The notes under the pieces are model-generated. The model made no database searches and was not told the origin of the DNA. It saw only the letters and a list, made by a program, of their open reading frames with translations. A stretch of DNA of 64,000 nt, taken from IMG/VR virus record IMGVR_UViG_2541047913_000007; one strand, written 5' to 3'. Numbering within the stretch: position 1 is the first letter of the stretch; every line of letters starts with the position of its first letter. This stretch comes from a virus. Taxonomy: Duplodnaviria > Heunggongvirae > Uroviricota > Caudoviricetes. Below, in pieces: positions 9,501 to 47,366 of the stretch. Both the position numbers and the translations under genes were made by a program.

Positions 9501-12500
9501 GGATCACCATTTTTATCCACAGCATCAAGCAGCATCACAACCGCATTTCTTTCTGTCGCGGAACGGTAAATTGCATCCGGATTGTGCATCAGTTCCGGAA
9601 GTCTCTCGATAACATCCATTGGCACCACATGTTTCACGCCATTGGTAGCCTTCCGCACAGTGTCGCGGGAGATAACCAGCGGCAAATCTGGTGCGCCAAG
9701 GTGGCGCAATACCGGCGGCGTACGCCCGATGTTTGCAGTCATTGCACCAGAACGTAACGACTTCATCATTCTGGCAAGGTCATCACGATAACGCTCGCCC
9801 TCACCTTCCGGCACTTTGAACGGATCAGGCTTACCGCTACGGGAGTACTGAGACGATGCGCCAGCGCCATCCTCACGCGGCGTGTAACCTTCCCGCACAC
9901 GCTGGCCTAACGTGCGAATAGTTTCGCGAACAAGTCTGATATCGTTCAGCTCTGTCGGCTTCAGTAACCCCGTGCGACGCAGTACCCCTTTGACCAGGGC
10001 AACAACACGCTCCCACGCCGCCACAAATTTATTCGGCTGTTTCTCCGCCATATGTGCCAGAAATTCACCTGCCTGCACTTCCGGTGATTCCTTACCATAA
10101 GACGCATCAACCTTACGCCAGGCGTCACGGATGGTGGCGTTATCACTGTCACGGGTTTTCAGTACGGTCTTAATAATCGTCTGATATTCCGCTGGCGTGA
10201 CTACATGCTCCATTGCATGGTGAATAATCTCGTGACGTAACTTCTCGCGAACGGTCCGCCCGTCAGGGATGTTATCCGCCACCAGGACAATTTCACGTTT
10301 ATCCGGACGATAGAACGCATGCACCCTGCCGTAACCGTCGAACGATTCACCCGCCAGCGCTTCAGCCTCTTTCTGTGACTTCACCACGCGGACCTTCAGG
10401 TCACTGTCCTTAATGCCACTCATCACGCCACGGGCAACCGCTTCAACCTGCGGGACCGGGCTGCCTTTGGCTTCCGCACTGCGGTTAACATCCGAAATGA
10501 GATTGCCTTCAGGTGTGCGGGTCACGCCCTTACGGGAATAAAACGCAACGCCCTTGTCCGTCTCACGGGTTTTCAGCGTACTGAACAGGTGATCGAATGC
10601 ATCACGAATACCGCCATCCAGTTCCGCATTCGTCGGATAAGCCCAGGTGTTATCTGTGTTGTGCTCAGGTGCCTTACGGATATTGACCAGATAATCATTC
10701 TCCACGCCAGCCGTACGCGCTTTATCCTGAACATAACGCTCAAAGGCACGCGCCGCCATTTCAACATCCGTTGACCAGTACGGTTTTGAGCGCACCTCAT
10801 CGAGAAGCGCTGAACGACGCGGCATGTCACTGCTGTTGATCGCTTTCATCACGCCTTTAAACGCGTCGTAAACCTCCTGACGTACCGGATATTCCGCATC
10901 AACATATCTGCCGTCTTTAAATACGCGCCCGGCACGCTGTGCTTCCGTCATATAGTCGCCACCTGACGTGATCTTCCCGTCAGTGGAAACATCATAACGA
11001 CCAAAATAATTATCCAGTGAATGGAACCATTCGTGGGCCAGCGCCCCCGGTCCGTTACCTTTTGTCAGGTTGATTGCCACCTCACCCGGCTCATAGTGTG
11101 CCGCCGCCTTACCCTTACCACGGGCACCAAAAGCAAGCCCAAGACGACCGTTCAGAGAAAGCGCTTTTGTCGGCACGTTCAGCACATCAGCCAGGTCATG
11201 CAGCGAGTCATAAGCCCGGTTCAAATCAGCCTGACGACGCGGACCTTCCACATAATTACCAAACTGCACACCACGAAAACCAAACGCATCACTGAACTGC
11301 TCCGGCGAAACATCCCCCTTGCGGCGTTCTGGTCCGGTACGATCGCGGTTGGTGGCGTTACGCTGCTCCTCACGCGAAATCTCCCGCATCTCCTTCACAT
11401 GACGAACAAGCTCATCACGATGTGAATCAATGTACTTACGCGCATCACTGGCTGACTTAAAGCCACCTCTCACCCGCATTTTGTTTTTGCCGTAAGCGAT
11501 AAAAATATCGCCACTACGGGTATTCCGGTAAACGTCAAAGCTGATTTTGTCATCTGGTGACGGTGCTGTTTTTTCATCACCTTTCGCCCGTGACTTTTCC
11601 TCCTGCTCTGCAAACCAGGCTTTCGCCTTTGTCAGTAATTCATCCCTGCTTTCCGAGAAAAAGAGGTTACTCCCCTTATTGTCCTTATTGCGCAGTGAAT
11701 AAAGTTTCTGTGGCGGATCGTAACGCTTCCCTCCGGCCGCCTGATACACACCGGATACCACCCGATAAGCAGAAGCCTTGTCCATCTGTGAAGGTGGCAG
11801 CGTGCGTAACAGTTGCCAGGTATCCGCATAACGGGAAGGCATTCTTCCCTCCATCCACTCAGCAAGCCGTCCGGCAGTCACTTTTCCTTCCAGCATTCCC
11901 GCCACGCTTGTGCGGATGCTCTTTACACTCTCCACCCACTTCACCGCATTGAGTTTCGTTTTCGCGGGAATATCACTGCGGTACAGCGCAATCATTGCCA
12001 GTGTGTCAGCGTCGGCCCCTTCGTTCGCCAGTTTTGCATAGTCCGGTTTCGGGAACACTTTGCTCAGCGGCTGCGTGAAATAATCCCTGTCTTCCAGCGT
12101 TTTACCCAGTGTTTCGGCAAGCTGTGCATAACGGTGTTTTGCCGCGCCCTTAATCTCCTCACCAAAGTCTTCAATTTTTGCACCACGCGCCTGCTGGTGA
12201 GTGCTCGGTTTATCTACCGGCACCGGCACCGGCACCGGCACCGGCACCTCAGTATCCGGAACATCGGTTATGGTCTGGCGATTATCCCCGGTCTGTCTGC
12301 GCGCTTCTGCCTGCTGTGCCAGTTCCGGAAGGGAGTCACGAACCATACGAGGGAGTGATTCAGGATGTGGCATATCAACCCCACGCTGTTCAGGTGCAGG
12401 AAGTCCTTCACGCACTGGTGCTGTGGCGTTCTGCTCATCCGGTGATGGCAGACCACGACGAACCGGTTCGCCCTCCAGTATTTCCCCCTGGCGACCAGCG

Positions 12501-14884
12501 GCATTTTCCGGTGCCTGCGCACGTCCTTTCTGGAAACTCTGGCCCTTCACCTCACCGGTTGTGGTAAAACGACCACCACGTCCGGCCTGATTTTCATCCG
12601 GCGTACGCGCCACTTCTCCTGGTAACGGATATCCCTGTCCGGGATGAATATCGCCGGGAGCGGGAAGGCGTGGACGCTCAGTTAACTCCTGTGCTGTCGG
12701 ACCGGCATCACCTTCAGCCATCTGTGAACGTACAAGCTCCTCTGCCGTCGGCGCGTTGCCACGGGCAAGGCGGGCCTGCACTTCTGTATCATCCCCCGTG
12801 AAACCACGGAATCGCGGGTCACGCATGAACGCGGGCTGCTCCATCGGTTCAGCATCAGCAATACGCTCTCCGTCAGCCAGGGTGTTAATGGTCTCCGTTG
12901 CCACATCTTCAGAGAACGCAGGATTATCCATTTCAACGGCATACTGATTCTCGCCTTTCTTCACTACGGACGGTTTCAGGCCGGTGGCGCTGGCATTGCG
13001 GAAAACGTCGCTCCCCAGAGCACTTTTTTCATCCGTGAAATAACGGTTGTCCGGACGCACCTTTTCAATGCGTTCTGCTGGTCTGGACGCACCACTCCCG
13101 TTAATTTCAATACGAACTTCATCCGGATCGCGGAACCGCACCGTCGGGTAAATACTCCCGTCGCCATCATCCGCATTTTCCGGCTGTGGCTGTGCCTCCG
13201 GTCTGGCCTCCTGCTGAGGGCGAAGCACATCACGGATAGCCTGTAACTGCTGCTCTTCAGTATCAGTACGCCCTTCCTTCAGGCTGAGTTTTCGGTATTC
13301 CTCAAGCAGTTCAGGGCGCGGCTTCGCCTTCAGCTCATCCATCACCGCCTGTCGCTTCGCCTGTTCATCCAGTTCATTTAACAGCTGGCTGGCGGCTTCC
13401 CGGCGATGAACGGCAGACGTGTCTCCCTCAGGTGCCATATCCGCATCAGCATACTGTTCCAGAAGTTGCTCGCGATTCATGCCCTGCATGGATTCGCGAT
13501 GCTGTGCCACCGGATCAGCCGGTTCGGGTTGCGGGGCTGCTTCACCCTGCTGTACGACTTCAGCCTCACGCATGGCGGTTTCTTCTGCGGCCTGACGTTT
13601 TCCACGATATCCGGCAACCGCACCGAACGGTGCGCCCATCGCTGCACCAAGAGCGGCTCCTTCGATCGTTGCGTCAGCTACCCCCTCCCATGGTGATATA
13701 TCCATTCCGGCAGTCTCACGCAACGTCATATTTTCCTGGTAACGCGAATAGCCGCCCTGCGCCGCATTAATCGTCCCCTGTTCCGTGGCATTTCTGACAA
13801 TGCCGCTTTTAACGGTCTTCGCCGTGCCCCGCATCGCCAGATTAAACAACTGAGCATCGCCCAGTTTTGCCGCCATGGCATTCACAGCCAGCAATTCAGG
13901 ATCGGTTGCCAGCTGCGCGCGCACCTCATCGGCAACACGCTCTTTTGCCAGATCCATTTTCTGGCGATCAGTAAGCTGTGCGTGCTGCGGATCTGCATCA
14001 ATTGACAAAAACGTCTGCTGAAATTTCGGGGACTTCGCCAGCTCAGAGTAATCCGCGTTAAGAACAGAGTCTGCTGCTGCCATTGCACTCTGCCCCTGTG
14101 CGCTGGCTGAGGAATGGGTGATCAGGCCTGCCTGGAATAAATCCGGCATTTTTTTATCGACAGCTTCTGCTGCCAGTGCGGTAGCTCTTTCCGGCTGCAT
14201 CCCTGCCGCAATGTATTTTTTCTCCAGCCCGGCGGTCAGCACTTTTCGCAGAGTGACTTCACCCAGCTTTTTAGTCACACCGCCTGCAACCATATCAGGT
14301 ACAAGGGCACCAATCAGGTTTACGCCCTTCGCCACCCAGACCGCAGAATCATCATATCCTTCAGTCATCGGTGTATTCAGCGCCCGCTGCGCCCCCGGCG
14401 ACATCTTGCCAGTCAGCCATTCATCCGAGGCTTTAGCGCCGCCACTGACTGCCTTGCCTGTGACCTTCAGACCTTTACCGACAGTATCAGTAACCGCATT
14501 TTTTCCATCAGGCAGAGTGTCGATGACCTCATCCGCCCCCTTGCTGCCACCGACAAAAATATCCTGAACAGTTGCGACTCCCGGCAGCCCCATACGGCTG
14601 AACTCATTTAAAATACGCGCCCCTGTTTTTACCGGGTTCTGAATCATCGCATCACCGAGTCCACGGGCCATTTCCCCTGCCCCCCGGACGGACTGGGCGA
14701 CACCTTTCCCCATAGTTGGCAATACATCGCCCAGGCTGAACGACGTGCTGTTGTCCTTCCAGCGATTGGGATCGGAGAAAAACGCATCATAGCTGTCAGT
14801 CTCGCCCGGCTGCTGAATGTTCAGGCTGTTGCGGTTCTGGTTGCCAAATTGCGCTTCAGGGCGCTGTTCATCGGAATAAGCCAT
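6503..14884 (-). CDS. Giant (2793 aa) multidomain virion-associated protein with zincin-like HExxH motifs; candidate polyvalent injected protein
   Basis: Single uninterrupted ORF of 8.4 kb at the distal end of the structural module; contains ALAHEWFHSL and HEIIHHAMEH motifs, Pro/Glu-rich linkers and a (VP)n linker; all internal opposite-strand ORFs are short. Confidence 0.8.
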   Translation of the reverse strand: MAYSDEQRPEAQFGNQNRNSLNIQQPGETDSYDAFFSDPNRWKDNSTSFSLGDVLPTMGKGVAQSVRGAGEMARGLGDAMIQNPVKTGARILNEFSRMGLPGVATVQDIFVGGSKGADEVIDTLPDGKNAVTDTVGKGLKVTGKAVSGGAKASDEWLTGKMSPGAQRALNTPMTEGYDDSAVWVAKGVNLIGALVPDMVAGGVTKKLGEVTLRKVLTAGLEKKYIAAGMQPERATALAAEAVDKKMPDLFQAGLITHSSASAQGQSAMAAADSVLNADYSELAKSPKFQQTFLSIDADPQHAQLTDRQKMDLAKERVADEVRAQLATDPELLAVNAMAAKLGDAQLFNLAMRGTAKTVKSGIVRNATEQGTINAAQGGYSRYQENMTLRETAGMDISPWEGVADATIEGAALGAAMGAPFGAVAGYRGKRQAAEETAMREAEVVQQGEAAPQPEPADPVAQHRESMQGMNREQLLEQYADADMAPEGDTSAVHRREAASQLLNELDEQAKRQAVMDELKAKPRPELLEEYRKLSLKEGRTDTEEQQLQAIRDVLRPQQEARPEAQPQPENADDGDGSIYPTVRFRDPDEVRIEINGSGASRPAERIEKVRPDNRYFTDEKSALGSDVFRNASATGLKPSVVKKGENQYAVEMDNPAFSEDVATETINTLADGERIADAEPMEQPAFMRDPRFRGFTGDDTEVQARLARGNAPTAEELVRSQMAEGDAGPTAQELTERPRLPAPGDIHPGQGYPLPGEVARTPDENQAGRGGRFTTTGEVKGQSFQKGRAQAPENAAGRQGEILEGEPVRRGLPSPDEQNATAPVREGLPAPEQRGVDMPHPESLPRMVRDSLPELAQQAEARRQTGDNRQTITDVPDTEVPVPVPVPVPVDKPSTHQQARGAKIEDFGEEIKGAAKHRYAQLAETLGKTLEDRDYFTQPLSKVFPKPDYAKLANEGADADTLAMIALYRSDIPAKTKLNAVKWVESVKSIRTSVAGMLEGKVTAGRLAEWMEGRMPSRYADTWQLLRTLPPSQMDKASAYRVVSGVYQAAGGKRYDPPQKLYSLRNKDNKGSNLFFSESRDELLTKAKAWFAEQEEKSRAKGDEKTAPSPDDKISFDVYRNTRSGDIFIAYGKNKMRVRGGFKSASDARKYIDSHRDELVRHVKEMREISREEQRNATNRDRTGPERRKGDVSPEQFSDAFGFRGVQFGNYVEGPRRQADLNRAYDSLHDLADVLNVPTKALSLNGRLGLAFGARGKGKAAAHYEPGEVAINLTKGNGPGALAHEWFHSLDNYFGRYDVSTDGKITSGGDYMTEAQRAGRVFKDGRYVDAEYPVRQEVYDAFKGVMKAINSSDMPRRSALLDEVRSKPYWSTDVEMAARAFERYVQDKARTAGVENDYLVNIRKAPEHNTDNTWAYPTNAELDGGIRDAFDHLFSTLKTRETDKGVAFYSRKGVTRTPEGNLISDVNRSAEAKGSPVPQVEAVARGVMSGIKDSDLKVRVVKSQKEAEALAGESFDGYGRVHAFYRPDKREIVLVADNIPDGRTVREKLRHEIIHHAMEHVVTPAEYQTIIKTVLKTRDSDNATIRDAWRKVDASYGKESPEVQAGEFLAHMAEKQPNKFVAAWERVVALVKGVLRRTGLLKPTELNDIRLVRETIRTLGQRVREGYTPREDGAGASSQYSRSGKPDPFKVPEGEGERYRDDLARMMKSLRSGAMTANIGRTPPVLRHLGAPDLPLVISRDTVRKATNGVKHVVPMDVIERLPELMHNPDAIYRSATERNAVVMLLDAVDKNGDPVVSAVHMKATDKRLEINKVASVYGTENGKKLKSMEMAGLTLYRKEKLSRDNPQYSGLQLPKEERSYRGSVDKILYPEDIRKGPYYSRTSSLTPEETIASRFVRQMQDKFQVLKAVQENIRKTGGKIDDSNNAYMAEELFHGKAENDLNVMKERYVQPLAKLLADYKIAQADLDEYLYARHAPERNAHIAKINPKMPDGGSGMTNAEAAEIMQRVRNSGKQAQYDRLAGIVDDMLARRRELIREAGLEESGVVDAWQNAYRYYVPLKGQDVDGVVSLPRTGKGFTIGGRESRQAMGRASRAQSPSTQAIQDLSESLIRNRKNEVGNAFLKLVQDNPDKDYWQVFTDDKPDTMRAIAERVDPETGETRREVVERPVPMAMMADRYFTTKKDGKTYYIKLHDPRLMRAMKNMGPETSNAVIRTLGKVNRFLATVNTSYNPEFLVSNFIRDVQTAVMNLKAEQGRSDGKLKGLDNLSALAVVKDSRSAMSAVYASLRGKTLTGNGAQWQKVWKEFVEDGGKTGWFNMGDLEGQQKEMDRLVSLAKGGWKGQSIGAWHSFLNLVEDANGAVENALRLSAYKHARDAGLSRQQAASLAKNMTVNFNRRGEQGALMNSLYMFANASIQGTANLVRTLGHLNGDGPLPERLRWKNLNVPQKIALAAVGAGYLLGSLNRSVAGEDDDGVNWYDKVPSHVKERNLVIMKSVFGGKAGEYWSIPLPYGYNVFFLLGHTAEGVAAGDLTASRAAGNVVGGILGAFSPVGSETSETLSGALLKNAAPTILRPFANLAMNENFMGAQIYQENMPFGTPKPDSQLGRRSTPEAYKAFASWLNAFSGGSQYRPGAVDITPESLKFWIDYISGGTGRFISKTTDAAVKSLNGIDIPEQQVPFLGKISGEVMPYADQQKMYDRMTEVAQYHAELKSLTGAERTAFIDENNGKLLMNGLMQDTRKRLKDLRKQRDAIYADSSLSLAQQAAMVKSVERDMKVAVDRFNREYNKKVGVD
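12213..12246. repeat. Hexanucleotide tandem repeat (CGGCAC)x5-6 inside the giant ORF, encoding the PVPVPVPVPV linker
   Basis: Direct reading of caccggcaccggcaccggcaccggcacc. Confidence 0.85.
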
Positions 14885-21525: not shown

Positions 21526-23225
21526 ACCGGCAGCTCCGACATCGATGTACTGAGTGTAATACGTTCAACCTGACCAAAACCGGAAACCAGTATCTGCCAG
21601 TTTTGCCCGGTTGCAGCAGGTAATCTCACAACGCTTCCCGAAAAGCTTCCAGGTGCAAGGTGAATCACCGGAACATCATCTGCCAGCACAGTAATTCCCA
21701 CCCGCTCTGGCGTCGGAGACTTCACCCTGAGACAGGAGAAAGAGGTTCTTTCCGGAAGGGAAAATACCTTTGAATGCCATCTGATTGTCGACGGCAAACT
21801 CCCTCCGGCGATCGCAGACATGTTTTGTCCTGATACCACCCGCATAACATCGTTAACCAGGTCAACACATGCGCAGTCAAAAGGTGTACTGAGGTAGCGG
21901 ATATCCATACCTGCCGGGTTGAAGACAAACACATCCTGCTTACCATCCGGTTTCGTGTAACAGGCAATGTATTCACCACGCCAGGGATAAGCCACAATGG
22001 AGGCCGGATTAAACTGACTCTGCCACTGTTCCGGCGAAATAATCTGCTCCGTCGCCAGAGCGGCATTACCGTTTGCATCAACAGACACCAGGCCATTTGT
22101 TCCTGCATACAGCACAAAGCCCTCCATCGCGACCATACTCCGCCTGCTCAGACACGCCTGCATTGAAGGAATTCTGGAGCCAGAAATTGTGGAAGGCGAT
22201 ACACCACTGAACAGATAAGGCTCACCCTTTGTCGCCACCACCAGTGATGTTCCGAGCGGACAGATAGCCACAATATCTTCTGCCGTCGTGTGACGATTCA
22301 CTTCCGGCCATGCATACGGCAGATACGCTTCCGAAAACATCACTTCATTACCGGCAAATCCGGCGGCAATACCATTCGCCATCAGGCAAAGGCCTGTCAT
22401 ATTCTCCGGCGGCGGCAGGTAATCCCATGTCGCCAGCGAAGGTCCAAGATTTTTCGCCGGTATTTTATCCGTGTAACTGAGCACGGATGCATCCAGTTCA
22501 GCCACGAGTAAAAAATCGGCTTCTCCTCCCCCTGAGGCAGAACGATAAATACGACGACGTTTAATACTGGCATTCTGCAATGGCACCGGAGCCAGCGTCA
22601 GTTGTACCGCAGTTCCCGGAGTACGGAGTGTTACCTCCAGAGACGCCGGACCTGGCGGACCTTCTTCACCATAATCTGAGACAAAGGTTTCCGTATAAAA
22701 CCGGGTTTCATCATCATTCGGGTTATCGTCAGAAACATCACCGCCCTGCTGGACAGTACAGACAGGAGCTGTCGTCGGCGCGGGGATCCCAAGACGATAC
22801 GATGATGTCGGGTGATTCCCGTCCCCTTTTGTGGCAATGGTCGCATCCGTCACTTTAGGAAAACGCCCGTCAGTGTAGTAAATACGCCCGTGGGGGTCCT
22901 GAGCGATCGGACTGCGGATCACATCCACCACATCCGGCCATGCAAACCAGAAATCGTCACGGTAATGAAAAATTGTTTTTGGCTTAATTGTGAATGTTTT
23001 CTCAACCCCGGATATCTGACGTTCTGGTGTAATAACACCAAACCGGAAATGGCAGTCCTCCGCCAGTACAGCGGAATGCTCGGGCAGCATGGATGTCACA
23101 ACGCGCGGCATCATCCCACGCATCGTGGTGATATCGATATAGGGCATAGAAATTCCTTTGACTGCTTCAGGCTTAAAAATCAGGGGATTTATGATGGAAT
23201 TCGCTAAAATCGCGATCGGTATCAC
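21522..23225 (-). CDS. Tail protein (start may be internal Met at about 23147)
   Basis: 567-aa ORF overlapping next gene by 4 bp. Confidence 0.5.
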   Translation of the reverse strand: MIPIAILANSIINPLIFKPEAVKGISMPYIDITTMRGMMPRVVTSMLPEHSAVLAEDCHFRFGVITPERQISGVEKTFTIKPKTIFHYRDDFWFAWPDVVDVIRSPIAQDPHGRIYYTDGRFPKVTDATIATKGDGNHPTSSYRLGIPAPTTAPVCTVQQGGDVSDDNPNDDETRFYTETFVSDYGEEGPPGPASLEVTLRTPGTAVQLTLAPVPLQNASIKRRRIYRSASGGGEADFLLVAELDASVLSYTDKIPAKNLGPSLATWDYLPPPENMTGLCLMANGIAAGFAGNEVMFSEAYLPYAWPEVNRHTTAEDIVAICPLGTSLVVATKGEPYLFSGVSPSTISGSRIPSMQACLSRRSMVAMEGFVLYAGTNGLVSVDANGNAALATEQIISPEQWQSQFNPASIVAYPWRGEYIACYTKPDGKQDVFVFNPAGMDIRYLSTPFDCACVDLVNDVMRVVSGQNMSAIAGGSLPSTIRWHSKVFSLPERTSFSCLRVKSPTPERVGITVLADDVPVIHLAPGSFSGSVVRLPAATGQNWQILVSGFGQVERITLSTSMSELPV

Positions 23226-23509
23226 TGCAACAGAGTGTTGCTATGATATTCTGGACAAGACGTAACAACTCACTAATTGTTATCAAACGTCTTTCTTCTG
23301 GTCGGGGAGCATGTTGCTCCCCTTTTTTTACTGCATTACCACCGCAGCTGTAGCAACAAGAGCCAGCACACCACCAAGCCACACAAACAGCATGAAGCAC
23401 ATTGCGCCTGTGGTGTAACGTTTTCTTCCGATTGTCCGGCATCTCTCTTTATTCATCATCTGCACCTTCTGAACTATCAGAAGATTCTGCGCATCCGGCA
23501 GGACCGCCA

Positions 23510-23980
23510 TCAGGCACCAACAAGCCGTCTGACGCTCACACCATACAGCCCGTTTTTCGCCATTCCCGTATACAGAAAGGTATTCACCGTCTTCGTGTGG
23601 ATACCCATTTCACTGGCAAGGCGACAGGGTCTCGACTGGCGGTAGACATAACCGAACATCACCACCATCTCTGACATCGTCAGCGGGCGGGCAGCACTGT
23701 TATACGTCCACACACCATCGTGTATGGCATCACTTATCTGCTCACCATCACGGAGCAACTCCGCATCCAGTTGCAGAAAATGACGCCCCTGGAACATACA
23801 CCGCATCAGCCTGCCCAGCAGGCCATCACTGATTATCAGCCAGGATTCGTCAAAGTCCGGGATATAACGGCGGTTCTCCGGCATGAAAAACTCCCTCGCC
23901 AGTATCACACTGTGTTCCTTCAGTAACGCCTGCAGACCGTACTCCAGATAGCGATTCCTGGTAGCCAGAATCACCTTCAT
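23510..23980 (-). CDS. LuxR/GerE-type HTH transcriptional regulator
   Basis: C-terminal LTMSEMVVMFGYVYRQSRPCRLASEMGIHTKTVNTFLYTGMAKNGL fits LuxR-family HTH; start taken at MKVILATRN. Confidence 0.45.
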   Translation of the reverse strand: MKVILATRNRYLEYGLQALLKEHSVILAREFFMPENRRYIPDFDESWLIISDGLLGRLMRCMFQGRHFLQLDAELLRDGEQISDAIHDGVWTYNSAARPLTMSEMVVMFGYVYRQSRPCRLASEMGIHTKTVNTFLYTGMAKNGLYGVSVRRLVGA

Positions 23981-24068
23981 CGCAGCACCTTCCTGTTTTT
24001 TATGCCCCATGAAAAACGGCAGACCAGAGTCCTGCGCCTGCCGTCATACTTCATGTCACCTTCAGCAA

Positions 24069-25184
24069 TTAAAACTCGAAGTTCACACCTACGTTGTAGG
24101 AAACATCACCGTCGCTGGCCGCAATACCTGCTTTGGCTGCGGTCTGCTCGTTGAAGCGGTAACCCACACCAACAGCCACAGCCTGTTTGTCACTGTAACC
24201 ACCCAGGGCTGCCGTGGCGTTGAATTTACCCACACTGTACGGCTGGAACAGACCGGACAGCGCCGCACTCTGTGCTGCCGCACGTTTCATTTCTTCGTGG
24301 TTTTCACGAATCTGGCGCTGCTGGCTGTTCAGGCGTGCGTTATGCTCCTGCAGCTGGCGGGAGTGATTCTGGATAGCCTGGGTGTTACTGCGGGTTCTGT
24401 TGTCGAGGCTGACAACAGCATCATTCACACGAACGTTGCCCGGTGCGCTCTGGTCAAGTGTATAGCTGCCATCTTTATTCTGATAAATTGTTGTATCTGC
24501 CTGAATGGCTGCAACTACATTTTTTACAGACTCTCGCTCCACTGAGCCTGTTTCATCAAGGGTAATGTTACCGTTAGCATCGATAGCAAAAGTGGTGTCT
24601 TTATTCAGTTGGTCGATATTTCCGGAAATACGTGCATATTCCTTAGTTACATCAGGATCAATTTTAGCTAAAGCAGCCACAGTCTGCGCATCCCCACCAC
24701 TATTTATTGCAGAAAGGTATGCATCTTTTGTTTCTAAAGAAACACTAGATTTAACTTTATCAACTAAAGACTTAACTCTTAATATATCATTTTCTTGAAG
24801 AGATGCGGAGGTTAAACTATCTAACTTAAGAGTCGGTGAATATACAGGGTATGATATTTTCTCCGATAAGTATTGGACAACCATATTCAATTCTTCTTTA
24901 TTCGCTTTAGGATAAGCCTGTTTATATTTCTCGAGGCCCTTTTCCATGAACGCTTTATCCTTATCATTGTACACATAAGAACTTCCTGTTGTTGTATCAA
25001 TTAAACTTATTACTTGACCATTTTTGTCAGAAATTGTTGCTTGCTCACCATTTTCTCCAAAAAATTTAATTGTATACTTTCCTACAACTCTGTCGGTAGG
25101 TTTTGCAGACAACGAACTAAAACTAACAAACATCAATCCGGCAACAGCAGAAGAAAGAATAGTCTTTGTAAATTTCTTGCTCAT
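24069..25184 (-). CDS. eib: Eib-type immunoglobulin-binding trimeric autotransporter adhesin (YadA-like anchor)
   Basis: 371 aa with signal peptide, coiled-coil stalk and C-terminal anchor ending ...[12 protein letters not shown]-rich; in a prophage that also carries ibrAB. Confidence 0.8.
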
Positions 25185-25666
25185 GTGGTATACCCTATAA
25201 AATTATCTGTATACAAATAAAACAGTTCAACATCGGATATATAAAGAAAATCTGATGTCTCGCCGCTCTCATGAGCTTACTCCTGAAGAAATTCCGAATT
25301 TTAATATGAAGTTTTTCGGAATTTCCTTACTATAACGTCGGTGATATCACGTTCGCGAAGGGATATCCGCATTACGACTGGCCTGCCACTTATGCTGTCT
25401 CTTTATTCATCAACAATTTGTATACGGTTACATCTTTAATTGTGAAGTTAGTCACAAAAAGAAGAAAGTCAAATAATCAAATTGTGCTTAACTGTTTACA
25501 TCAGCACAATCTGATGACCATTGAATGACCATTGAAGGACGCACTAAATTATTTTCAGCAATCCCTCAGCCTACGAAAATTCTGTATCCCCTGAATGTTT
25601 AATTTACACTCTTTTTATGCAATTATTCTTTCGACTATAAAAACACCACTATCTCATGTATGACCT

Positions 25667-25693
25667 TGGGGAGCGTGCCGTCTCCCCGTTTTT
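25667..25693 (+). terminator. Intrinsic terminator-like hairpin (plus strand)
   Basis: GGGGAGCGTGCCGTCTCCCC + TTTTTT. Confidence 0.55.
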
Positions 25694-25837
25694 TCGCTTA
25701 CAGTTTCATGACGACTTTCAGTTTCAGGAATCAGCAGTTACCATGCAATACGAAAATTCTGTATTGCATCCGCGCCCTCATCTCAATATCTTTGTCGCCG
25801 GATAAAAATAACTATCAACCACAAGTATCATGCTCTC

Positions 25838-25864
25838 GGGGAGCACGCACTCCCCAGTTTTTTA
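25838..25864 (+). terminator. Intrinsic terminator-like hairpin (plus strand)
   Basis: GGGGAGCACGCACTCCCC + TTTTTT. Confidence 0.55.
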
Positions 25865-25967
25865 TCTTTGACAGGGGTGAAGGAGGCCGTTGCATCTCCT
25901 TTAATTATCATTGCCAGATTATTTCCTCGACCTGAGTATTCTTTATTTAGCCATAGCTTTGTAGCAA

Positions 25968-25992
25968 GGGGCTGGAGCGCCCCTCTTTTTTT
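25968..25992 (+). terminator. Intrinsic terminator-like hairpin (plus strand)
   Basis: GGGGCTGGAGCGCCCC + TCTTTTTTT. Confidence 0.55.
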
Positions 25993-26570
25993 CACCTGTC
26001 AGCCATGCCGACCTTATACGCCAGTATAGCTTCCGCATCATCCAGCGCTTCAATCTCTTTTTTCATCGTGCGCTGTCTGACATGAATTTCCAGACCTTTG
26101 GTAAACATCGCCTGCTCTGCAGCAGCACTCAGAGCAATCAGTGTTTCAGCGTCCATCGGTACGTCATTATTGTCCGCATCCGTCCAGAAAAACGCCTCCG
26201 GCAGTTTCCCCGCTTTCGCTGCCGCCACCGACGGCTCAAGACGCGCCTGCGTTGACTTCCCGTAGTCCCATTTACGCCCATTGTGCTCAAACGTGTAGTT
26301 CGCCGCTTCCATCGCATTACGCCAGGCGTTGATCCCGGCGGTTTTGAGTTCTCTGGCTTTTTCCGGGCTGATGGATGGCTGTACATATTCTGCAATTTCA
26401 CCGGCCTCTCCTCTCAGACAAGCGGCATAAATATCCCGCCCGTATGCTTCGGTATCGCTGGCTGTTGCAGTGAAAGGAACCGCCTGCTCAATGTGCTCAA
26501 ACTTCACCATGCAATTGACAGCAGTGTGATCTTTATCTGCCCATTGCGGATTGCTTATTTTTTTCCACAT
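25992..26570 (-). CDS. Tail fiber assembly-like protein
   Basis: 192 aa immediately downstream of the fibre gene; position and size typical of Tfa chaperones. Confidence 0.45.
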   Translation of the reverse strand: MWKKISNPQWADKDHTAVNCMVKFEHIEQAVPFTATASDTEAYGRDIYAACLRGEAGEIAEYVQPSISPEKARELKTAGINAWRNAMEAANYTFEHNGRKWDYGKSTQARLEPSVAAAKAGKLPEAFFWTDADNNDVPMDAETLIALSAAAEQAMFTKGLEIHVRQRTMKKEIEALDDAEAILAYKVGMADR

Positions 26571-26589: not shown

Positions 26590-28653
26590 TCAGTATGCGC
26601 GCTGGAACAGCCCGATGCCTTCATTGTCATTTGTCGACGTAATTTCATTACACACCATCCATGAGCCCGGAACTGAGGATAGGTTGCCGTCAATGCCATC
26701 GGTGTTAGCTTTCATATAGTTCCCGCTTGCATCTTTGATTATGGCGCATCGCTTAAGGCGTGAACCCTGTACAGTTTCTCCTGGCTGATAGGTTCTGCCG
26801 ATGTCGGTTGTATACGGGGCTAGTGCGGCAATAATGTATGTTCCGATGCTGTAAATTTCCCCGGGTACCAGCCTTCCGGTTGGCCCTTGTGGTCCCTGTG
26901 GTCCGGTTTTACCATCCAACCCGGGCAGTCCCATCGGCCCTCGCCCTCCGGCAGGGCCCTGTGGCCCCGTTTTACCCGCAGGACCTGCCGGACCAACCGG
27001 CCCCGGAACACCCTGTGCCCCCGCTGGTCCCCTTTCACCTCGTGGCCCTGCCGGGCCTGCATCACCTTTGGGACCAGCTGCACCAGTCGGTCCCTGTGGG
27101 CCTGCGGGCCCCACTGCTCCCGCAGGTCCTGTCGCCCCCTGCAGCCCACGGAGGCCCTGCTCACCTTTCTGTCCTGCAGGCCCCTGAGGTCCGGGTTCAC
27201 CGCGCTCACCTTTCGGACCTGTGGGACCTGCCGGTCCTTGCTCGCCCCTGTCACCTTTCGGTCCAGGTATGCTTTCTCCCGACGGGCGGGTTGTCGCAAC
27301 CTCTTCTGCCTTCTGTTTCGCTGCCCTGGCCTCATCCATTGCCGCCTTCACAGCTTTCGGTGTGGCTGCCTTCGTTTCATCATCACTGTCCGTTGCGCTG
27401 CTTAACTGCACAATTCCCTTCTGTGCCGTCGTCGCATCTGCCACATTTGCTGCGCTGCCCGCCGGGCCTGGCTCCCCACGAGGTCCCTGAGGTCCAGCTT
27501 CGCCTCGTTCACCTTTCGGACCTGCCGGACCCGGTTCACCTCTCTCTCCGGCGGGGCCCTGTAATCCTTGCGGACCACGTTCCCCGGGTTCCCCTTTCGG
27601 CCCCGCAGGTCCGGTCTCACCGCGCTCTCCCTTTGCTCCTGCCGGCCCCGGCTCACCTCTCGGACCAGTATCCCCCTTTGGTCCCTGAGGCCCCCCCGGG
27701 TCTCCTTTTTCGCCTCTGGCCCCGGTTTCACCACGCGGCCCCATTGCTCCCTGTGGCCCGGTCGCACCACGTGGGCCAGATGGCCCTGTTGCGCCAGCTG
27801 GCCCCTGCACTCCCTGAGGTCCCCGTTCTCCTGTATCACCTTTCTGGCCCGGTATGCCCTGAGGTCCGCGCTCTCCCTGCTCACCTTTCTCCCCACGCGG
27901 ACCCGCCGGACCTGTTTCACCACGAGGACCAGCATCACCTTTCGGCCCTGTATCGCCTTTAGGTCCTCGTGCATTCTCAGCCATACGTCTGGCTTCTTCA
28001 GCACTAACTGTAGCAGCCTCAGCACGTTTAAGAACGTCTCCGGCGGCCTCCTGAGCCACTCTGGCGGTTTCAGCATGTCGTCTGGCCTCTTTAGCGTCAG
28101 CTGCCGCTGCCTTTTCAGACTCACCTGCCCGGGTCGCCGCCTCTGCAGCCTCACTGGCTTTTTGTGCAGACTCCGTCGCTTTGCTGGTCGCAGCCTTCGC
28201 GCTTTCTGATGCAGTCTTCGCACTGGCAGCAGCGCTTTCCTTCGACTGTGAAGCCTGATTATTTTTCACCGCCGTGTCTTCGTTCAGACGACGAATCGTG
28301 GCAAGGTCATCCGCCACATTGTTCTGTATCTGCCGGAAATCTGTCAGCAGTTCTCCGGGTATGCTCACCTCAACAAGACTGCGGCGTAACAGCATATTGA
28401 GCGTCACCGTACTTTCAGTCCCCTCAATACGCACACGTCCGTAGACAGCAGTCTTCCCTCTCACCGTCACTGAAACCGCATACTCCCCCGGCTCCATCGT
28501 CATGCCGTAATAGCCTGTTGACGTGGTGACTGCCGACGCGCTGGTGCCACTGAGTGCATCCGGTGAAACAGTCAGCGCCGTCAGCGTAATGTTCGCATCT
28601 GATACAACCTGACCATCAGGCGATTTCAGCGTCCCCGAAACAACAACACTCAC
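26590..28653 (-). CDS. Tail fiber protein with long collagen-like Gly-X-Y repeats
   Basis: 687 aa; several hundred residues of G-x-x triplets ([11 protein letters not shown]...), GC-rich low-complexity DNA that generates spurious overlapping ORFs on both strands. Confidence 0.8.
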
Positions 28654-42786: not shown

Positions 42787-42817
42787 CCCGCGCTTCCCGG
42801 CGCGGGCTTTTTTTTAT
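42787..42817 (+). terminator. Intrinsic terminator (plus strand) upstream of nanS-p
   Basis: CCCGCGCTTCCCGGCGCGGG + TTTTTTTTAT. Confidence 0.6.
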
Positions 42818-42819
42818 CC

Positions 42820-43540
42820 AACAAGAAAGCCCCTCCGGAGAGGGGCTGGAGAGTAGCGCTATGTACCGTTCATGCATGGTGCAGGGTGCCTCCCGGTGAG
42901 TTCAGTATCAGCACCTGAACCCGCACCAGAAAGGATAAGGGGTGTGACCAAACACCTGTCGCTGATATGCCCCTCCGCACAGGGGGATTCACCATGCCAT
43001 ATTTTTTTAACAAACTTCCCGCTGGCCAGACAATAATCGCCAGCCTGAATTGTGAGTAACGTGGCATTTTACGGGAAAACTGTTTTCTGCAGTAAAAAGG
43101 CCCGCCGGAGCGAGCCTGGAAGGATAGCGGTCATGTGATGCCGGTTTCCCGGTAACTCAGCATCGGTATCTGAGTCAACGTTTTCTCTACTGGGTCATTT
43201 CCGATACGTTCCGCCTTCCGGCAGACTTTCATCACGTCAGAAAATATAGCACCCTGAGTAACAGGACAGTACTCAGAATTCAGGAAACTGTGACACATCC
43301 TGCACAGAAAAGCCCCTCCGGAGAGGGGCTGAAGTATAGCCTAATTTCTGTCTGTCGCATGGTGCCAGGTGCCTCCCGGTAAATTCAGCCTGGCTACTGA
43401 ATTTGCATGTTCGCTGGATCATACACTTTGCCAGATGCCCCGCCGCTGAGGGGGATTCACCACGCGATGCAATTTTTAACAAATTCTCCGGCAGCCAGAC
43501 AATCATCAAGCTGTGGAATTGTGAGGTATTTAAAAATTTC
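42820..43540. repeat. Three tandem copies (two complete, one partial) of a ~200-bp structured element in the Q-nanS intergenic space
   Basis: Shared blocks AAGCCCCTCCGGAGAGGGGCT, GCATGGTGC.GGGTGCCTCCCGGT, a second hairpin with covarying stem (GTTCAG/CTGAAC vs AAATTCAG/CTGAATTT vs ACTCAG/CTGAGT), GGGGGATTCACCA, ..GCCAGACAAT..TGAATTGTGAG. Confidence 0.7.
42828..42860 (-). terminator. Intrinsic terminator on late-transcript strand
   Basis: Minus-strand hairpin AGCCCCTCTCCGGAGGGGCT followed by TTCTTGTTGG. Confidence 0.5.
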
Positions 43541-47079: not shown

Positions 47080-47242
47080 AGTGACGCCTCCGGTTGATGA
47101 GTTTTTCATTCACCACCGTCAGGTTCCTAATCATCGGGTGGCGAGACGTACAGGGTTAGGAACTACCGGATCAACCAACCGGCCAGCCTTTCGGCTGCCC
47201 CATACGCCCCACCATAATTCAGATGTGCGTGTGCATACGACA

Positions 47243-47266
47243 ATAAAAAACACGCTCGCGGCGTGT
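47243..47266 (-). terminator. tR2-like intrinsic terminator between replication/cargo region and nin region
   Basis: Minus-strand hairpin ACACGCCGCGAGCGTGT followed by TTTTTTATT. Confidence 0.55.
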
Positions 47267-47366
47267 GTCTGTCGCGGTTGAATATCCGGGGTTCCTAATC
47301 CCGACGCCAGATTTTGCTGGCGTGCGGTGAATATAATCCCGGATACCTATTTTTGTCAAACAACCG

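Follow-up and report, generated by a model that had tools for sequence, protein, structure and literature searches.

In both commensal and Shiga-toxigenic Escherichia coli, Eib proteins act in serum resistance and adherence, and growth conditions strongly affect their expression (PMC4352079). Where does the control of such a gene reside, and what is the role of the repeat-containing non-coding DNA found upstream of it? These questions are raised by a stretch of 64,000 nucleotides from a virus of the class Caudoviricetes (IMG/VR record IMGVR_UViG_2541047913_000007; the whole stretch is referred to as the window), in which an eib-like adhesin gene on the minus strand (24069-25184) is preceded by a non-coding gap of 807 bp (25185-25991). 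A preliminary description of the locus had listed in this gap two tandem units, three hairpins with T-runs and a short direct repeat, and had proposed that small RNAs (sRNAs) or regulator-binding sites located there control eib, with the ParB-like protein IbrB as a candidate binder. According to our analysis, the gap consists of two parts: the proximal ~290 bp, which are common to the eib types and are likely, as judged from sequence comparison, the core eib control region, and the distal ~480 bp, which occur only in loci of the EibA type. For the distal part we tentatively favor, with somewhat less than even confidence, a divergent non-coding transcription unit on the plus strand that would be closed by redundant Rho-independent terminators. 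Nothing indicates that its RNA or its repeats are needed for the regulation of eib, which we would place in the proximal part.

Every real gene between 20 and 29 kb of the window is encoded on the minus strand, and it is amid these genes that three strong hairpins and one weaker hairpin are clustered within 330 bp, all of them in plus-strand orientation, i.e., antisense to eib. The strong ones are terminator 1 (T1; stem 25667-25688, T-run to 25694), terminator 2 (T2; stem 25838-25855, T-run to 25864) and terminator 3 (T3; 25967-25992, AGGGGCTGGAGCGCCCCT followed by CTTTTTTT), the last of which has a predicted free energy of -11.6 kcal/mol and a T-run that overlaps the stop codon of the tail fiber assembly gene tfa by 1 nt. 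A fourth plus-strand terminator (GGGGAGCATGTTGCTCCCC followed by T7; 23304-23330) is situated at the opposite edge of the eib cassette, just past orf-60, and is also present in Shiga toxin (Stx) phages and in the Stx phage GER2. The predicted free energies range from -11.6 to -12.5 kcal/mol for T1, T2 and T3 and from -11.6 to -15.4 kcal/mol when the site at 23304 is included; all four sites have a GC-rich stem-loop followed by 6-7 T on the plus strand only, and would be expected to act as Rho-independent terminators. A terminator scan returned 11 sites in 3.2 kb versus 2.2 ± 1.6 expected, and four of the seven strong plus-strand sites in the full 64-kb scan fall within 23304-25984. The weaker hairpin (AAGGAG..CTCCTT, 25878-25903, plus strand) forms a perfect 8-bp stem followed by AAATTTTT in a second haplotype of the region.

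T1 and T2 each close one of two related units on the plus strand. Unit 1 (25572-25694) comprises a 16-mer (25572-25587), a body and T1, and unit 2 (25749-25864) the same 16-mer (25749-25764), a near-invariant body and T2. The 16-mer, TACGAAAATTCTGTAT, occurs exactly twice in the window with a period of 177 bp, and no further match was found there when up to three mismatches were allowed (0.37 expected). Aligned from the motif to the T-run, the units score z = 10.5 against shuffled sequences, a value to which the hairpin, the 16-mer and an ATAAAAA..ACTATC block contribute most; from motif to hairpin, the body by itself scores z = 2.5. The units are real, albeit diverged, duplicates. The listed features of the gap, i.e., its non-coding nature, the three antisense hairpins with plus-strand T-runs and the direct repeat, were all found again, and only some positions had to be revised: the units have a period of 177 rather than ~172 bp, the second copy starts at 25749 and not at 25745, and the direct repeat is an 11-bp tandem duplication (TGACCATTGAA twice) at 25515-25536.

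To see how stable this arrangement is, 52 distinct full-length copies of the gap were compared, taken from complete E. coli genomes, IMG/VR and 46 gut-metagenome contigs. Of 5426 complete E. coli genomes, 32 carry the EibA-type distal region, and strains with an EibA-type locus include ECOR-9, DETEC-S792 and 2015C-3121; exact-pattern scans of 185,579 species-representative genomes gave no match and hence no remoter homologues for a covariation analysis. None of the 52 copies lacks T2 or T3, the GGGGC/GCCCC stem of T3 being kept in 51 while its loop changes; in the hairpin at 25878-25903, variants turn a G.U pair into G-C and, by a one-sided change, one mismatch into C-G. Diversity is 0.002 and 0.007 for the two 16-mers and 0.008 for the body of unit 2, so that these parts, together with T2 and T3, are conserved to the same degree as the proximal region (0.010-0.012 over 25185-25513). 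The body of unit 1 reaches 0.155, in the form of two deep haplotypes. The 11-bp repeat has one copy in 33 sequences, two in 18 and three in a single one, and T1 was found intact in 24 copies and in degenerate form in 10; the other 18 have lost it through a 117-bp deletion at an ATC microhomology that takes the second 16-mer along.

The orientation, strength and clustering of the hairpins, as well as their recurrence at other eib loci, suggest plus-strand transcription that leaves the eib control region and is stopped before the tail genes, and a small or medium-sized plus-strand RNA is the most natural reading of hairpins facing this way. RNA polymerase would start in the AT-rich eib control region (30-40% GC over 24600-25700), move away from eib and antisense to the late operon, and stop at T1 (RNA of ~210 nt), T2 (~380 nt) or T3 (~510 nt), before it could enter the tail fiber assembly gene in antisense; the terminators would in this way have an insulating role. 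The best candidate for a start is a promoter-like site, TAGTCA-17-AATAAT (25449-25477, plus strand), the only plus-strand sigma-70-like site that a consensus scan found in the gap, from which an RNA would begin near 25484 with a 5' hairpin formed by a 13-bp inverted repeat (25476-25488 / 25503-25515). The AATAAT element and the inverted repeat are invariant in the 52 copies, and a similar AATAAT-like element is visible in GER2. The 177-bp units would represent a local duplication of the 3' module (16-mer, short body and terminator), which would explain why the number of units varies between strains without loss of the locus. The recurrence mentioned above concerns eib types whose sequence is unrelated at this place: an antisense-oriented terminator abuts the stop codon of tfa in P-EibC/D (L039, 644->627) and in GER2 (L098, 5084-5103), which points to a recurrent need to halt plus-strand transcription there; these types would have met that need with terminators of their own. 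The presence of T2 and T3 in every copy fits the model as well.

Several observations weigh against this interpretation. The antisense stop is not universal, as the terminator at the tfa end is sense-oriented in L041-type loci and lacking in the L047 type. The promoter-like site matches only 9 of 12 consensus positions, and several copies have a T>C change in its -35 element. Of the 52 copies, 28 have lost T1 or keep a degenerate form of it, and seven carry an uncompensated G>T change in the stem of T2. The unit RNAs fold no better than shuffled sequences (z of -1.2, -0.8 and +0.1), i.e., with no excess beyond the terminator hairpins, and RNAalifold on seven distinct T2-T3 variants gave no covariation (term of -0.18) and a consensus that misses the terminators. 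Finally, a role in termination alone leaves unexplained why the 16-mer is exactly conserved in units that have otherwise diverged, which keeps alternatives alive in which it is a seed or a protein-binding site; the distal RNA may have a function of its own.

The rapid turnover seen among the copies (change in the number of 11-bp repeats, the 117-bp microhomology deletion, 2-bp indels and two deep haplotypes) raises the possibility, which we regard as somewhat unlikely, that the distal block is neutral debris, namely what is left of one or more decaying opposite-strand cargo genes once located between tfa and eib, with their terminators still in place. A plus-strand open reading frame (ORF) of 70 amino acids (aa) in strain 2018-166 would fit such a gene, as most copies, that of the window among them, have it disrupted or changed; in the window the 11-bp duplication shifts its frame. 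The relative L049 (GCA_002761605.1) has an intact opposite-strand gene at the equivalent place, a CxxCxxCC (PF03692) gene between the tail spike and eib-like genes (2670-3074, minus strand), and at the other edge of the cassette the GGGGAGC..GCTCCCC stem at 23304 has a counterpart with the same stem in L041 (GGGGAGCTGGCAGCTCCCC) that serves there as the terminator of an opposite-strand dinI gene. Against decay stands the conservation of T2, T3, the unit-2 body and both 16-mers at the level of the proximal control region, as does the recurrence of antisense terminators in unrelated eib locus types. The 70-aa ORF, which was considered as a plus-strand protein gene and rejected, has no homologues beyond the locus (five E. 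coli hits, all internal to it, among 5.8 billion proteins, and no PHROG family), and its internal ATG is ATA in many copies. A dinI relic was likewise dismissed, as tblastn and blastn searches of the L041 dinI locus against both gaps matched the hairpin stems only. In L047 a CxxCxxCC (PF03692) gene shortened to 56 aa was observed.

The near-invariance of the 16-mer across the 52 copies, with flanking bodies that differ, would also be expected if each unit were an sRNA gene in its own right, giving two paralogous trans-acting sRNAs of the Hfq type (~45-120 nt) with the seed UACGAAAAUUCUGUAU and ends at T1 and T2. The 3' end of each unit is a stem-loop followed by a U6 tail, as is usual for the module that Hfq binds; prophage sRNAs that lie antisense beside morons and combine conserved 3' with variable 5' parts are documented (PMC4104026), and prophage sRNA families are known to differ in copy number between strains (Zhu et al. 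2026 bioRxiv). This explanation is nevertheless an unlikely one: neither the consensus scan nor inspection of the sequence revealed an acceptable -35/-10 pair ahead of either 16-mer or within either unit, and the second 16-mer and T1 were lost jointly in 18 of the 52 copies. The eib region has no Rfam match at gathering level, and over 23100-26100 even a threshold of E ≤ 10 yielded no relevant match to known prophage sRNA families such as AgvB (RF02702), AsxR (RF02703), STnc100, IsrK and C4, while folding of the units, as said, does not exceed that of shuffles. No site complementary to the 16-mer was found in the window with up to three mismatches, and none of the duplexes of the unit RNAs with the translation starts of eib, orf-156, ibrA and ibrB was an outlier (z ≥ -1.1). 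We give equally little credence to the broader version of this idea, in which the units belong to an undescribed prophage sRNA family transcribed away from eib, with the same seed, Hfq-type terminators and one or two copies depending on the strain; if it were true, lysogens of the EibA type would gain a strain-variable riboregulator of host or phage targets.

A coding role of the units is hardly credible. Small hydrophobic peptides resembling type I toxins, each followed by a terminator, could be read from an ORF of 22 aa in the window (MFNLHSFYAIILSTIKTPLSHV) and one of 24 aa in the second haplotype (MIVLFALFLCSHSVAYKKAPLSHV), both ending just before T1; these ORFs lack a Shine-Dalgarno sequence, most of the peptide is read in different frames in the two haplotypes, and no homologues were found. 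In the deletion variants the ORF is fused or extended, and unit 2 has no comparable ORF.

A further possibility is that the repeats are sites on the DNA, the 16-mers (near-palindrome TAC-N9-GTA) and/or the 11-bp repeats serving as distant operators of IbrB or of ORF-156, the product of the gene downstream of eib. The 16-mer does not vary and is in part palindromic (5 of 7 symmetric pairs, by eye), CTGTAT is also found in a conserved promoter-proximal box at 25206, the cassette includes a LuxR-type regulator, and an ibrAB-like pair is encoded in the same prophage; moreover, activation of eib by ibrAB has been reported (Sandt et al. 2002, as it appears in the reference list of PMC8065619). We consider such operators improbable. 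The number and spacing of repeats, which would be kept in an array of operators or iterons, are not conserved, since the 11-bp repeat has one to three copies and the second 16-mer is absent from 18 of 52 sequences, and other eib types without the repeats still keep orf-156. The distal block, units and terminators alike, is missing from eib loci of the EibC/D, GER2, L041 and L047 types, in which only the proximal ~290 bp recur and orf-156 is retained; the units are therefore no general part of eib control. The claim that the repeats control eib thus found no support, in line with the variable copy number and the joint loss of T1 and the second 16-mer. Two other roles of the repeats were dropped as well. 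RcsB-type boxes have the consensus TN(G/A)GAN4TC(T/C)NA, and matches in the 16-mer and in the half-sites of the proximal inverted repeat (6/8 and 7/8 specified positions by eye) were too weak; a crossover site for an invertase or resolvase did not fit direct repeats with no adjacent recombinase gene and a 117-bp deletion that does not run from motif to motif.

The element that is kept across eib locus types, and which the preliminary list had not included, is instead an inverted repeat in the proximal part of the gap. Four otherwise unalignable eib upstream regions were compared, i.e., those of the EibA type (window, 25185-25480), GER2 (L098, 4635-5000), the L041 type (L041, 2930-3262) and P-EibC (L039, 640-969), and common blocks were found only within ~290 bp of the start codon. 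These blocks are a box, TTTGTATACAAA, that adjoins the ribosome-binding site; TAAAGAAAATCTGATG; an AT-rich inverted repeat, TTCC(G/T)AAA..TTT(C/A)GGAA, in which the G/T of one arm is mirrored by the C/A of the other; and TTAC..TAATTGTGA..TCACAA. In the window, the inverted repeat is a perfect one of 11 bp (GAAATTCCGAA-N16-TTCGGAATTTC, 25288-25325), centered 123 nt upstream of the eib ATG and annotated as a stem_loop in GenBank AF151091. A promoter-like site for eib (TTGAAC-17-GATAAT, 25202-25230, minus strand), proposed from its consensus match, overlaps the conserved box TTTGTATACA, which is located at 25204-25218 and again at 25416-25430. The comparison thereby splits the upstream region into a part common to all eib loci and a strain-variable add-on, and the common part, with the inverted repeat and the TTTGTATACA box, is where the action of IbrAB or ORF-156 should be sought, the distal repeats being probably irrelevant to it.

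A candidate gene for IbrB, the binder proposed in the preliminary description, is present in the window. An ibrA-like gene (3884-5110, plus strand; PAPS_reduct PF01507 and DUF3440 PF11922) and an ibrB-like gene (5095-5739, plus strand) form a pair ~18 kb from eib, near the prophage end and convergent with the late operon. The ParB assignment of the latter is weak, with a ParB_N match below the cut-off (E = 0.0016) and a match to Noc (E = 5e-5). No result of the analysis connects IbrB with the distal repeats, and if it binds near eib, the conserved proximal inverted repeat would be a better candidate for its site than the distal repeats. Beside the pair, a SocA/Panacea antitoxin-domain ORF (5828-6352, minus strand) adjoins an ORF of 2793 aa (6503-14884, minus strand) at the end of the late-strand gene block.

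The second regulator, ORF-156 (156 aa; 23510-23980, minus strand), is 97% identical to ORF-156A of AF151091 and had been called a LuxR-type helix-turn-helix (HTH) protein. This designation is supported by fold and transitive homology and not by standard profiles, as no Pfam or NCBIfam match was obtained at E ≤ 10. A search of 5.8 billion proteins returned 45 relatives, the named ones all from E. coli and none of them annotated, and a profile search of 1.84 billion cluster representatives only 37 proteins, nearly all from E. coli prophages. The family profile (21 members) gave weak matches to the LuxR-type HTH structures 6ugl, 6kju and 6ide in the PDB (E = 0.07) and to GerE (E = 0.36), while among distant family members P0078 exceeds the GerE (PF00196) cut-off of 23.5 bits with 28.4 bits, and P0055 and P0069 match Sigma70_r4_2 above cut-off. 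The AlphaFold model is confident (predicted local distance difference test, pLDDT, of 85), its C-terminus has the four-helix DNA-binding fold of the GerE type, and its Foldseek neighbors are exclusively response regulators of the NarL/FixJ type (StyR, VraR, RcsB, FixJ, EvgA and DosR). The receiver-like domain is degenerate: the acidic pocket that accompanies the phospho-acceptor Asp of a true receiver is lacking, the Mg2+-binding acidic pair at the end of strand 1 being replaced by T7/R8. For this reason, ORF-156 is on the modeled structure best described as an orphan receiver-like regulator of the LuxR type that is probably phosphorylation-independent. Compared with NarL/FixJ-type regulators that have atypical receivers (RcsB, EvgA, StyR, VraR and DosR), it is distinguished by a length of only 156 aa, the replaced acidic pair, the lack of a direct Pfam match and a tiny family. 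A protein listed as 'hypothetical' since 2000 would with this gain a concrete assignment as a LuxR-type regulator accompanying eib. Relatives of orf-156 in other prophages are also located immediately downstream of a gene with a YadA anchor, and the eib and orf-156 pair therefore travels as a cassette. The most divergent relatives (~55% identity; L044-L046, 4501-4995) are found beside hpa genes with no called YadA-anchor gene, and an uncalled gap of 1.15 kb upstream of them may be a decayed eib.

The remainder of the cassette and its surroundings follow the same strand. The product of the eib-like gene is a trimeric autotransporter of 371 aa with a YadA_anchor domain (PF03895, E = 4e-16, residues 313-371) and a partial match to NF033478 (YadA_autotrans); the identity of this protein to EibA (59%) is confined to the C-terminal 166 aa, its N-terminal 226 aa and passenger domain being unrelated. 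The gene ends in a minus-strand intrinsic terminator (24009-24044, -20.4 kcal/mol), which is annotated as a stem_loop in AF151091, AF151674 and AF151675. Downstream of orf-156 comes the homologue of orf-60, encoding a small hydrophobic protein (23328-23510, minus strand; phrog_9340, E = 1e-29), and beyond it an L0124-like gene, upstream of which the cassette sits. On the other side, tfa (25992-26570, minus strand; PF14301, E = 6e-20; RefSeq DUF4376; orf-191A in AF151091) is the final late gene ahead of the cassette. It is preceded by a collagen-repeat tail fiber gene (26590-28653, minus strand), whose long collagen-like Gly-X-Y repeats give rise to many spurious overlapping ORFs on both strands.

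The intergenic region that contains the fourth plus-strand terminator (23239-23330, plus strand) has an extended -10-like element (TGCTATGAT, 23239-23247) and a stem-loop ahead of GGGGAGCATGTTGCTCCCC-T7, and an 81-nt stretch of it folds far better than shuffled sequences (z of -4.9) with no Rfam match. It is common to Stx phages of O157:H7 and O104:H4 and to GER2 (351 of 5426 genomes), with one compensatory change from C-G to U-A in O157, and may be regarded as a candidate antisense prophage sRNA. Elsewhere in the window, gathering-level Rfam hits were obtained for two copies of STnc100 (42817-43026 and 43302-43495, minus strand), a C4 antisense RNA next to isrK (47134-47323, minus strand), two sRNA-Xcc1-like elements at the prophage end (2395-2483 and 2932-3017, plus strand) and an ALIL frameshift pseudoknot (52933-53049, plus strand).

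How does the locus compare with what is already known? The window holds the published eib cassette of E. coli lambdoid prophages, i.e., tfa/orf-191, gap, eib-like gene, orf-156 and orf-60, and the new details, of modest interest, are that orf-156 can be assigned to the LuxR-like regulators and that backward-facing terminators form an array in which a duplication is polymorphic. The closest described relative is P-EibA of E. coli ECOR-9 (AF151091; Sandt & Hill), with 92-94% identity to the window and an identical order of orf-191/tfa, gap, eib, terminator, orf-156 and orf-60. Its gap is 94% identical over 86% of the length, its ORF-156 is 97% identical, and its two annotated stem_loops correspond to the inverted repeat upstream of eib and to the eib terminator. 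It differs in that its gap has the single-unit form left by the 117-bp deletion and its record carries no annotation of the plus-strand terminators or the repeat units, whereas the cassette of the window is placed in a tail region like that of GER2 and other Stx phages; the wider prophage also resembles GER2, in which the gene order around the 'adhesin' is identical.

In the classical lambdoid moron, a gene is inserted into the late operon together with a promoter and a terminator (Juhala et al. 2000, as cited in PMC4104026). The eib gene of the window resembles it in having a promoter-like site of its own, a strong sense terminator and an AT-rich composition relative to its flanks, while the backward-facing terminators at both edges of the cassette fall outside that classical description. 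The nearest documented parallel to the array is provided by convergent or antisense short sRNAs with Rho-independent terminators that lambdoid prophages carry at their moron sites (Tree et al. 2014, PMC4104026), and if the backward-facing terminators cap real RNAs, the locus would be one more moron-associated prophage RNA locus, of modest general interest. The sRNAs of the AgvB/AsxR type are encoded downstream of PR' by stx-type morons, measure 51-60 nt and were demonstrated by Hfq crosslinking, northern blots and 5' rapid amplification of cDNA ends, in contrast to the units of the window, which match RF02702 and RF02703 neither in sequence nor in structure and are known here from sequence alone. 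What the units share with AgvB, AsxR and EcOnc01-03 (PMC4104026) is their organization: terminator-bearing units directed against the late operon beside a moron gene, whose related copies have the same 3' parts and different 5' parts and are variable between prophages.

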